Below the pieces are notes generated by a model, which saw only the letters and a program-made list of their open reading frames with translations, was not told the DNA's origin and ran no database searches. The translations under genes were made by a program, and so were the position numbers. From positions 434,001 through 498,000 of the forward strand of contig BAAIJX010000006.1 of the NCBI GenBank assembly GCA_054600435.1: a stretch of DNA of 64,000 nt. Reading direction: 5' to 3'. Below are positions 51,751-55,128 of the stretch, piece after piece (position 1 is the stretch's first letter; each line of letters starts with the position of its first letter). Origin of the DNA: Neophaeotheca triangularis. Taxonomy: Eukaryota.

Positions 51751-52658
51751 CTATGATGAAGTGGCCATATTTTACTATAATTATCTTCAAATAGCCTTTC
51801 TCTCGCCAACCCTCACTTCAAGGCACTTTGAATTGAGGTCACGGAGCATTCGTCCTGTACGCCATGTCTTGACGAGCGGTCTAGTGTTAGGGTTTGGGTA
51901 GGTACCAAAGTCAGATGCTTGGAAGCTCTCGATGCCTACCTCGGAGGTAACGCGTCCCGTGGACCTCAGGCTGCCTCTTTGAGAAAGCCTAGCTCAGGGT
52001 GGTAGAGTTTTCTTTGGAGAGGTCAACAGCAGTTGCGGTGTAAGAGTAAGACGCGTGAACAGGAGTCAATGCGATGCAGGTGAGACGCATTGGACGACCC
52101 AATGGGAAGAGACCACGCCGAGACGGTGGAGATGGCGGTGGTCACAGACTCAAGTACTTCTTTTGTTTGTTGGGCATCTTCGCCTACGGGTTGGGGTATT
52201 CTGTTCAGACGACATGTAGATGCACCTCACAAGTTGGGCGGATGTCAAATACTATAATGGAGTATTCTTTAATATGATTATGATTGTTATGATTATTGTT
52301 GCTTGGTGGCTGATGACTTGTGGTTGCTGGGGATCCACTGGTATTACTCTAATCCGGTCTAGTCATGTTTTTGGCCGTAGCCTCGGAACCACCTCAAGCT
52401 CCCAGCTTAATTTGCGGAGGAAGCTTTCGCTTTCGCTTCCCTCCCTCCCACCTCCGAGCGCGCTTCGTCTACTGCATCTCAATCACAACACAACAACACA
52501 CTCACCTCCTCCTCTCTCCCTCTCTTCCTCCCACCCCCCCGCCATCACCTGCTTGTCCTACTTGAACCAGCCCGCTCCAGAGTTCCCCCAGCAGTCGCCC
52601 ACACTGCTACTTTGAGAGTCCTCAGCTGCGCAAGAACAGCTGAGGCCGAGTCGTCAAT

Positions 52659-53696
52659 CTGGACTACGATTGCAGAGTCCCAATCCCAGTGAGCTTCTTT
52701 CCAGTGAGTATACCCATCGCGTCACCCTATCAATGACAATGTCATTGAGCAAAATTCATCGTGCGTGTACGGGCTGACACACTCATCTTCACAGTCGACC
52801 TACAAGAACCAAGACGCCCAAGTCACCGAAGAACGGACAGAGGAACGCATCTCTGTCGAAGAAGGGGAAGGTCGTCAACGTGAACGTCAACAATCTTCCT
52901 CTTCCAACGTCGGCCTTCCCCGTGATCGCAAGGACGAGCGCTACACGCGTGAAGAGGTTCGCTTTACCGACGACGACCGCCAACGTCCGGGTCGTGTAAG
53001 CCACGAGGAAGACGTCAGGGTATACCGAGGCGACCGTCGCGACACGACCGTTGTCAACGAGCGGTAAGCACATACACACACCCTCTCTCTTTTCATTCTC
53101 AGCCTCCTTCTTTGGCATGACCTGGACAGTCAGTCCATGTCCCGTCTGTTTTGGCTGTCGTCGCTCTTCTGCACACTGCACACTGCACTCTGCACACTGC
53201 ACATCGGCACGGGCCCGCTTCCCCCTGATGAGCTGGCGCGACACGCTACTCGGCTAGCGCGCCACTAGTGCCATTTGGTCGACCTGGGAACTTACCTGCT
53301 TCACCTTTTGCTTTGTCTTCTCTCTCACCGGCTCTTGAAGCTCTTGAAGCTCCATCCTTGTCATGTCTTTGGTCCCAATGCTGACGGTCGCCTCCTAGCT
53401 ACCGTGAACCCTACCAACGCTACGCCGGAGCTCAACTTGACGTAGAAGATCGTGTTTACGACAACGAGCAGCAGTACAACACCCGTCACTCCCCTACCAA
53501 CGTCGACTACAACAGTCGGCTAGACAACTTCGAGCAAGACTACCGCCAGCGTACCACTCCGTACGCCGAGCAGTACCAAGACAAGAGTACCTACCCCAGG
53601 GACTACCCAGAACAGACCGGCTTCGACGAAAGAGTCCGTACTACCGAGACTCACACCGTCGATCCACGCTCCCCCGACACCAAGTCCAAACGTGAC
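52659..53696 (+). CDS. Putative CUG-initiated 204-aa N-terminal extension of HEX1; exons 52659-52703, 52795-53063, 53399-53696
   Basis: Two canonical introns (GTGAGT..GCTGAC..ACAG; GTAAGC..GCTGAC..CTAG) join a stop-free frame into the HEX1 ATG; no ATG in any frame; in-frame TGA at 52641. Confidence 0.72.
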
Positions 53697-54389
53697 ATGG
53701 GATACTACGACGAAGACGGCCACTATCACTCTTTCCGTCACGGACTGCACCGCGCTGCCGACCGCGTCCTCCACCCGATCCACGGCGGTGACCACTCCCA
53801 CTCCCACTCCCACTCCAACCGCCAACAGACCGACGACATCAGCGAAGACCGCGTAGTCAGTGACCGCGAAGTCCAAGTTTCCCAGCCTCGCCGTCAATCC
53901 GGAGCAAGCATGCCTCGTCGTTTCTCCGAGCGTTCCGGTGTGCCCAACACCATCACCATCCCCTGCCACCACATCCGCATTGGCGACCTCTTGATCCTTC
54001 AAGGCCGCCCATGCCAGGTCATTCGCATCACGACCTCTGCCCAGACTGGTCAGCACCGCTACTTGGGTGTTGACCTCTTCACCAAGCAATTGCACGAAGA
54101 GTCTTCCTTCGTCAGCAATCCATCCCCGTCGGTTGTTGTCCAGAACATGCTTGGCCCAGTCTTCAAGCAGTACCGTGTCTTGGACATCCGTGACGATGGC
54201 CGTGTCGTCGCCATGACCGAGACCGGAGACGTCAAGCAGGGCTTGCCCGTCCTCGACCAGAGCAGCTTGCTCGCCCGTCTCAACGACAGCTTCAACGATG
54301 GCCGTGGCAGCGTCAGGGTTCTCGTCATCAACGATGAGGGACGCGAGATGGCTGTCGACTACAAGGTCGTCCACGGTAGCAGGTTGTAG
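53697..54389 (+). CDS. hex1: Woronin body major protein (eIF5A-like fold, PTS1)
   Basis: MGYYDEDGHYHSFR, TIPCHHIRIGDLLILQGRPCQVIRI, QHRYLGVDLFTKQLHEESSF and C-terminal peroxisomal signal SRL. Confidence 0.98.
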   Translation: MGYYDEDGHYHSFRHGLHRAADRVLHPIHGGDHSHSHSHSNRQQTDDISEDRVVSDREVQVSQPRRQSGASMPRRFSERSGVPNTITIPCHHIRIGDLLILQGRPCQVIRITTSAQTGQHRYLGVDLFTKQLHEESSFVSNPSPSVVVQNMLGPVFKQYRVLDIRDDGRVVAMTETGDVKQGLPVLDQSSLLARLNDSFNDGRGSVRVLVINDEGREMAVDYKVVHGSRL

Positions 54390-55128
54390 ACAAGATTGTA
54401 CTTGTAAGTTGGCTCCACTCAATCAACGATTTGACAGCTCAAGTGCTCACAATCCCAAGCAGTCCGCACAGGAACCACCACAATTACCTGTTGTGCCCGC
54501 CTGTACCTAGGCACAAAGTGTACACTGCCATGTTTAGGAGCTCTACTTCTTACTGTACCTTAGTTGTCATTGGGCTGCCTTCAGCCGCCACAAGGTGTAC
54601 AAGGGTTACAGCGAGCCGTACAAACAAATGATTCAAGGATAAGGAAGGACGCTAGACTGTCGATAGTTTGCGTAGTATAGTCAAACGGAAAGAGTCCTTA
54701 CATAATCACATGATTTGATGCTCGATTGGAACGTTCATGGCATGATTGTATTCTTACAAGTGAGTGTTGTCGCTGCACAGTCCTTCCTCGTTTCCTGAGC
54801 TCCAACGTGCCAAGTCTGTAGCATGTTCACTTTTGTCATGCAGATTTGGGAAACAACGTGGGCACAGTAGTAGAAGTAGTATCATCGTTCCAAACAGAGC
54901 TAATCGCCCATAGAAATACCTACACGAATGCATCCTGGGTATCAAAAAGAGGTATTGTTGGAATTCGTGACATGCATCGCCATCGTCTCTCCCATTACAA
55001 CCTCCATGCTTCATTATACCTCCTCTACCAAGCCTTGAGTCCACGCTTTTTTGCCTTGTGAATCCCAGCGGGCATCTCGACACCGTTGGAGGCCTCCGAT
55101 CCCGCTGCCGCGTTTTGTCGGCTCTTAC

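Follow-up and report, generated by a model that had tools for sequence, protein, structure and literature searches.

A conserved CUG codon as the likely start of an N-terminally extended HEX1 in Pezizomycotina

HEX1 is a textbook self-assembling protein, which crystallises into the septal-pore plug known as the Woronin body and defines that organelle. Here we examine the hex1 locus of Neophaeotheca triangularis within a window of 64,000 nucleotides (nt; NCBI GenBank assembly GCA_054600435.1, contig BAAIJX010000006.1, positions 434,001 to 498,000 of the forward strand); all positions below are those of the window, and all features lie on its plus strand. Upstream of the classical HEX1 start codon, and in frame with it, this locus carries a spliced extension of about 200 codons that contains no AUG, and a CUG codon at its 5′ end is the likely start of a long and conserved form of the protein.

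Descriptions of HEX1 have centered on a shorter product. The described forms, namely the seven solved sequences and the isoforms in the available text of a study of V. dahliae Hex1 (PMC7762394), begin at MGYYD without an extension of about 200 amino acids, and the known isoforms result from alternative splicing just after MGYYD, as in the V. dahliae proteins of 188 and 209 amino acids (PMC7762394). A precedent for AUG-less extensions is provided by N. crassa cpc-1, which, as portrayed in the accessible portions of its description (Ivanov et al., 2017; PMC5487733), shares two traits with the present locus across Pezizomycotina: a conserved in-frame AUG-less extension, and near-cognate codons that are likewise conserved and carry A at −3 together with G at +4. 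The two systems differ in that the cpc-1 leader holds several near-cognate candidates together with upstream open reading frames that begin with AUG, whereas hex1 has a single invariant CUG and an AUG-free leader. Neither hex-1 nor NCU08332 is mentioned in the text or the 10 supplements of that paper (PMC5487733). At the RNA level, the hexA motif has been described as an extended hairpin, interrupted by internal loops, that lies in 5′ untranslated regions (UTRs) or introns of Hex genes. A conserved tail comes after the hairpin, and its most variable positions recur at every third base; the available text proposes a role in splicing control and identifies no start codon (Li & Breaker, 2017; PMC5640933). 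The literature searched, which left hex1 papers in subscription journals (e.g., Beck & Ebel, 2013) outside its scope, contained no report of non-AUG, CUG, or near-cognate initiation in connection with HEX1 or the Woronin body. The hex1 locus is presented here as a well-supported new instance, in a textbook protein, of a mechanism that is already known. A 2020 report by Kremp and colleagues is said, by its title, to concern non-AUG initiation that generates peroxisomal isoforms in fungi; the present locus would be a further case in which a non-AUG start alters a peroxisome-related proteoform. In contrast to the reported case, the two predicted forms in the window have the same C-terminal peroxisomal targeting signal type 1 (PTS1), and the N-terminus is all that distinguishes them.

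Judged by its sequence, the gene in the window is hex1/hexA of a Dothideomycete. In the homologue search, positions 53400-54386 are 100% identical to the public N. triangularis model P0001. The classical HEX1 open reading frame (ORF; 53697-54389; 230 amino acids plus stop, MGYYD...SRL) begins at an AUG in the context gacATGg. Its translation from ATG 53697, MGYYDEDGHYHSF, opens with the conserved MGYYD start and aligns from residue 1 of 8QLW. Comparison with the solved Woronin body major proteins gave expectation values (E) of 8e-89 (8QLW) and 1e-77 (1KHI), the weakest being 1e-70, and all seven solved sequences matched in this way begin at MGYYD. Like N. crassa HEX-1 (HEX1/HexA; PDB 1KHI) and its relatives, the window ORF starts with MGYYD, ends in SRL, and contains both eIF5A-like domains as well as the TIPCHH segment.

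Ahead of this AUG, the reading frame continues through two introns. The exon and intron coordinates that an original prediction had assigned to this region are exact: 52659-52703, 52795-53063, and 53399-54389 join into 1305 nt, or 434 codons plus a stop, a frame that has no internal stop and reads through MGYYD (ATG 53697) to ...HGSRL*. The proposed CUG start of the long isoform (52659-52661) lies in the context GTCAAT-CTG-G, with the A at −3 and the G at +4 that had been claimed for it. It opens the coding part of exon 1 (52659-52703, LDYDCRVPIPVSFFP), an island in which conservation of the extension is highest. Intron 1 (52704-52794; 91 nt, GTGAGT..CAG) separates it from exon 2 (52795-53063), which is R/E/D-rich and has neither an ATG nor a Pfam match; intron 2 (53064-53398; 335 nt, GTAAGC..TAG) follows, and each of the two introns contains a CTGAC sequence resembling a branch site. 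The last part of the extension (53399-53696) is contiguous with the HEX1 ORF and carries the islands RYxxPxxRY...DVxDRxYD and D..E...R....P. In the 5′ direction, the frame is closed by the expected in-frame TGA (52641-52643), six codons from the CUG, and none of the five intervening codons is a near-cognate start.

This architecture is seen in RNA. Contigs at least 95% alike, drawn from coded marine metatranscriptome runs, were placed on positions 51900-54900. Contig X1 (1759 nt) runs from 52489 to 54710 and crosses both junctions (52703^52795 and 53063^53399), as does X3, and X5, which comes from a second study, crosses 53063^53399. The predicted splicing of both introns is therefore borne out by exact junctions in RNA contigs from two studies, and no AUG-bearing exon joins the transcript after the TGA in any of the RNA contigs. 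The 5′ leader before the CUG extends at a minimum over 52489-52658, with X1 starting at 52489 and X3 at 52543, and is devoid of ATG. A further intron, in the 3′ UTR (54404-54462; 59 nt, GT..AG), begins 14 nt past the stop; X1 contains its junction, and the loose ends of X3 and X5 match the far side of that junction. Where no RNA contig covers the sequence, as in the introns and 5′ of 52489, the gap was not counted as evidence of absence. The public model P0001 (420 amino acids) starts at ATG 52739 and joins exon 2 (MSLSKIH..AQVTEER), a start that misfits the transcript because the RNA junction 52703^52795 places this ATG inside intron 1. As a separate observation, two studies of marine metatranscriptomes contain spliced transcripts nearly identical to the window over 52489-54710, in pieces that differ from it by one letter at most, and the fungus or a very close strain is therefore transcriptionally active in such samples.

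The explanation we favor is a single spliced mRNA with two in-frame starts that are selected by leaky scanning. A scanning 43S complex would first meet the CUG at 52659, whose context, with A at −3 and G at +4, is near-optimal. A fraction of the ribosomes would initiate there with the initiator tRNA (Met-tRNAi) and produce a protein of 434 amino acids, in which a mostly disordered, R/E/D/Y-rich extension of about 200 residues, with a highly conserved N-terminal peptide, is followed by the complete HEX1 core and the PTS1. The other ribosomes would scan about 610 nt further, through sequence kept AUG-free in all three frames by selection, and start at the MGYYD AUG to make the known crystal-forming HEX1 of 230 amino acids. 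The invariant N-terminus of the long form would presumably read Met-Asp-Phe-Asp-Ala-Arg-Val-Pro-Ile-Pro-Phe-Ser-Val-Phe-Pro. Taking sequence and transcripts together, we regard a real and conserved CUG-started HEX1 as likely, hold with somewhat less assurance that both forms come from one transcript, and expect the long form to be the minor product.

Conservation of the CUG codon itself points to its use as a start. Metagenome contigs were scanned with the degenerate pattern D-F/Y-D/E-A-R-V-P-I/V-P-F-S-V-F-P, which starts after the leucine and leaves the leucine codon free. The scan yielded at least 114 loci, which reduce to 72 distinct strings and 51 clusters; the sets of complementary DNA (cDNA)-like contigs and ORFs used below come from the matches listed. 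Among those matches, the codon at the leucine is CTG in 114/114 loci and 51/51 clusters, the invariance that had been foreseen, with no synonymous variation. The preceding codon begins with A in 51 of the 51 clusters, which fixes A at −3, and the codon before that is GNC; the G at +4 is imposed by the scan pattern. The codons that follow the CTG vary synonymously, with four for Ala, three to four each for Val and Pro, and CGC, CGA, CGT, and AGA for Arg. All 26 full ORFs begin with CTG, a codon that accounts for only 20% of their leucine codons overall, and six other invariant leucine columns in these ORFs, taken as a control, use three to four codons each. In each of the 51 clusters an in-frame stop lies 4-50 codons upstream (median 16; within nine codons in 16 clusters), and among the matches listed none of the 51 has an in-frame ATG between that stop and the CTG.

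Sequence comparisons across the Pezizomycotina support a coding role for the extension. Homologue searches retrieved hundreds of gene models of 400-700 amino acids whose common layout places an R/E/D/Y-rich stretch between (N)LDF(D/E)ARVP(I/V)PFSVFPS(S/T)Y and MGYYD, with the HEX1 core after that; an NLDFDxRVPIP segment that the original prediction had only remembered from other ascomycetes is thus real and present across the subphylum. With the extension alone as query, matches ranged from E 1e-15 to 1e-103 across classes. Gene models that include it come from Dothideo-, Eurotio-, Leotio-, Sordario-, Lecanoro-, Geoglosso-, and Xylonomycetes, the named matches including Talaromyces, Coccidioides, Penicillium, and Capronia (Eurotiomycetes) as well as Sordariales, Xylariales, and Hypocreales (Sordariomycetes). 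Ahead of the motif, the models either bear no relation to one another or lack a Met and are labelled as partial, the output to be expected from gene callers where no AUG exists. In 42 of 42 cDNA-like contigs, the frame is open for 209-363 codons. Of 19 chosen pairs, one was missing and one identical, and the remaining 17 gave ratios of nonsynonymous to synonymous substitution (dN/dS) for the extension of 0.18-0.71, with a median of 0.29, in line with the value below one that had been anticipated; the first 25 codons were excluded to avoid ascertainment bias. The extension is clearly under purifying selection on these sequence comparisons, with a constraint weaker than that on the core. An alignment of the 26 long ORFs resolves conserved islands, which vary synonymously, within a variable and repeat-rich background.

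No Pfam family matched the extension, and the ESM Atlas returned no usable match with the extension of P0218 as query. An AlphaFold2 model of the full long form (the L021 ORF with a 26-row alignment) reached a mean predicted local distance difference test (pLDDT) score of 46.5 and was left out of fold searches because even the core was poorly modelled. The description that fits the extension best is one of disorder interspersed with short conserved motifs. Its intron positions vary by lineage: the window has an intron after codon 15, and in the three usable pairs of cDNA-like contigs mapped to genomic loci (L046, L036, and L069 versus L039, L057, and L075) the first intron lies about 280-360 nt past the CTG.

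Immediately upstream of the CUG, conservation takes another form. The original prediction had expected conservation to start exactly at the leucine, and many models read FERHSRKDA..PVN before it; the expectation is refined in that the peptide-like FERHSRKD 5′ of the leucine is the noncoding 3′ arm of an RNA hairpin. Alignment and folding of 28 leaders (A1: L010:146-256 and 27 further loci) revealed a two-helix hairpin of 17 pairs, seven of which show compensatory changes, which ends 19-30 nt 5′ of the CTG in relatives. When 19 further loci were searched with a covariance model of this hairpin, 12 matched, with scores of 33-74 bits. The window is matched by the flanks of the model only (12.8 bits, E 0.28), and the canonical hairpin is not found there; a search of Rfam over 52300-53100 gave no match at E up to 1. 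At the place where relatives carry the conserved hairpin, the window has a local 9-bp hairpin (52620-52645), which ends 13 nt 5′ of the CUG and includes the in-frame TGA; the whole stretch scores z = −1.49 against shuffles, which is not significant. A frame that opens upstream, or readthrough of the TGA, was suggested by FERHSRKDA..PVN and was rejected, as this stretch is the 3′ arm of the covarying hairpin and is broken by in-frame stops within nine codons in 16/51 clusters.

The hairpin of relatives, 19-30 nt 5′ of the CTG, and the exon 1 that follows resemble the hexA motif and its tail as characterized in the accessible text (PMC5640933), and the two hairpins are probably the same, an equation that rests on the paper's description rather than its figure; the window differs in having no canonical hairpin. 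That a genuine conserved RNA structure lies just upstream (cf. PMC5640933) lends some color to the proposal that the extension is no protein at all and instead an annotation artefact over a long 5′ UTR conserved as RNA, as do the predicted disorder of the extension, the lack of a Pfam family for it, and the verdict of the V. dahliae Hex1 work, in its available text, that predicted variable N-terminal extensions are annotation errors (PMC7762394). We find this proposal hardly credible in view of the long open frame in all 42 cDNA-like contigs, the median dN/dS, amino-acid islands that are conserved despite synonymous variation, and protein-level similarity across classes.

The absence of AUG codons from the leader and extension also supports a CUG start on a scanned mRNA. 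On the plus strand between 52000 and 53800, ATGs occur at 52365, at 52733 and 52739 in intron 1, at 53117, 53137, 53228, 53363, and 53378 in intron 2, and at 53697. The claim of AUG-free exons accordingly stands: base composition would predict about 8.7 ATGs in the 905 exonic nt between 52366 and 53696, and there are 0. By compartment, the spliced leader from 52489 to the AUG has 0 in 782 nt, the introns 7 in 426 nt, and the HEX1 coding sequence (CDS) 8 in 690 nt. The cDNA-like set comprises 42 loci whose frame stays open between the CTG and MGY. All but one of these contigs are free of ATG, whatever the frame, over the whole of their sequence 5′ of the MGY ATG, a span of about 0.7-1.4 kb in which 7-16 would be expected and of which up to 334 nt precede the CTG. 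Only L070 departs from this, with a 5′ part of 1270 nt in which every ATG lies at least 323 nt ahead of the CTG. Pooled over 40 distinct contigs, with L070 excluded, the depletion in all frames that had been anticipated amounts to 0 ATGs in 39,862 nt upstream versus 266 in 24,945 nt of downstream CDS. By nearest named relative, the contigs tested fall among Pleosporales, Cenococcum, Mycosphaerellales, Eurotiomycetes, Leotiomycetes, and Sordariales; the HEX core of one, L018, is nearly identical to N. crassa 1KHI. ATG is absent even from the two non-coding frames, which would make little sense unless ribosomes have to scan through the extension.

Several considerations weigh against two starts on one mRNA. 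Translation from the CUG is something we infer from sequence and RNA contigs rather than observe directly, and contigs of this kind are blind to the transcription start, to abundance, and to a second, shorter transcript. A rival reading is that the long form is made from the CUG and the short form from a separate, shorter transcript, whose promoter would lie inside intron 2 or exon 3. In other fungi, more than one transcript start has been described for hex1. An internal promoter, on the other hand, would need no AUG-free extension, yet ATG is missing from the whole of the pooled upstream sequence and is common in the CDS downstream, and its absence extends to the two frames that encode no protein; we judge such a separate transcript unlikely.

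A second difficulty for the CUG is the 5′ end of X1, where 22 unexplained letters include an ATG in the frame of the CTG. These letters have no match anywhere in the window, at up to three mismatches, and may stem from a distant exon, from variation between strains, or from an error of assembly. They are one reason to consider that the extension is translated from some other start, be it an AUG in a missed upstream exon or the near-cognate ATC at 52683 or GTG at 52689. Gene models of other lineages are a further reason: P0002 and P0019, two of the closest named models, have A or F at the leucine position and an annotated Met 9-11 codons before VPIPF, and P0079, P0118, P0199, P0201, and P0203 have a Met a few codons upstream of the motif. 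Some lineages may, from these models, have switched to an AUG. In the window, the frame of the additional ATG in X1 is closed by the stops at 52563-52565 and 52641-52643, and position 52489 is not preceded by AG. Both ATC 52683 and GTG 52689 have C at −3, the CTG alone being invariant and in strong context, and the 41 cDNA-like contigs described above lack an ATG before it. Another start is, in our estimation, highly unlikely.

Two limits on the comparative data and one on function also count against the CUG-initiated long form. The scan required a conserved exon-1 peptide, which leaves divergent exons 1 unsampled, the variant in the window included, and the 51 clusters are related sequences rather than independent events. 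Outside a short helix at 155-168, the pLDDT of the extension is below 50, and therefore no fold supports a function for it.

The HEX1 core downstream is conventional. Its eIF5A-like two-domain region (53946-54365) consists of the Pfam domains IF5A-like_N (53946-54104; 30.2 bits, cut-off 27.1) and eIF-5a OB fold (54165-54365; 29.2 bits, cut-off 24.2). The C-terminal SRL (54378-54386; ...VVHGSRL*), the PTS1 of HEX1 in the available text of PMC7762394, would be common to both isoforms and ends all homologues listed. After MGYYD, at 53784-53827, the window has a His/Ser repeat, DHSHSHSHSN, where relatives have poly-His; a poly-His motif is required for septal targeting of HexA in A. fumigatus, according to work cited in the accessible part of PMC7762394.

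What the extension does is a matter for guesswork. Most plausibly, the long form would be incorporated into the crystal in sub-stoichiometric amounts by way of its HEX1 core, so that the extension is exposed at the surface and serves there as a cap or adaptor. A broader version, which we offer as a doubtful proposition, would have all Pezizomycotina make a CUG-started HEX1 as an adaptor or capping subunit, which enters the crystal via its core, limits or shapes lattice growth, and links the Woronin body core to the septal pore, to a tether, or to the membrane of the organelle. The leakiness of the CUG would determine how much of this subunit is made, the conserved upstream hairpin would tune that amount, and stress that alters initiation stringency would change the size or number of Woronin bodies.

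The finding accounts for two earlier puzzles. It explains why automatic gene models show "hypervariable N-terminal extensions", blamed on annotation errors in the available text of PMC7762394, and it explains the coding-like tail of the hexA RNA motif as that tail is described in the accessible text of PMC5640933. It also bears on annotation at large, as many of the fungal gene models retrieved here have an invented start or are marked partial, and the public model for the window starts inside an intron. If the long form exists, constructs that start at the AUG omit it, an N-terminal tag placed at MGYYD falls in the interior of the long protein, and hex1 knock-outs delete two proteins together.

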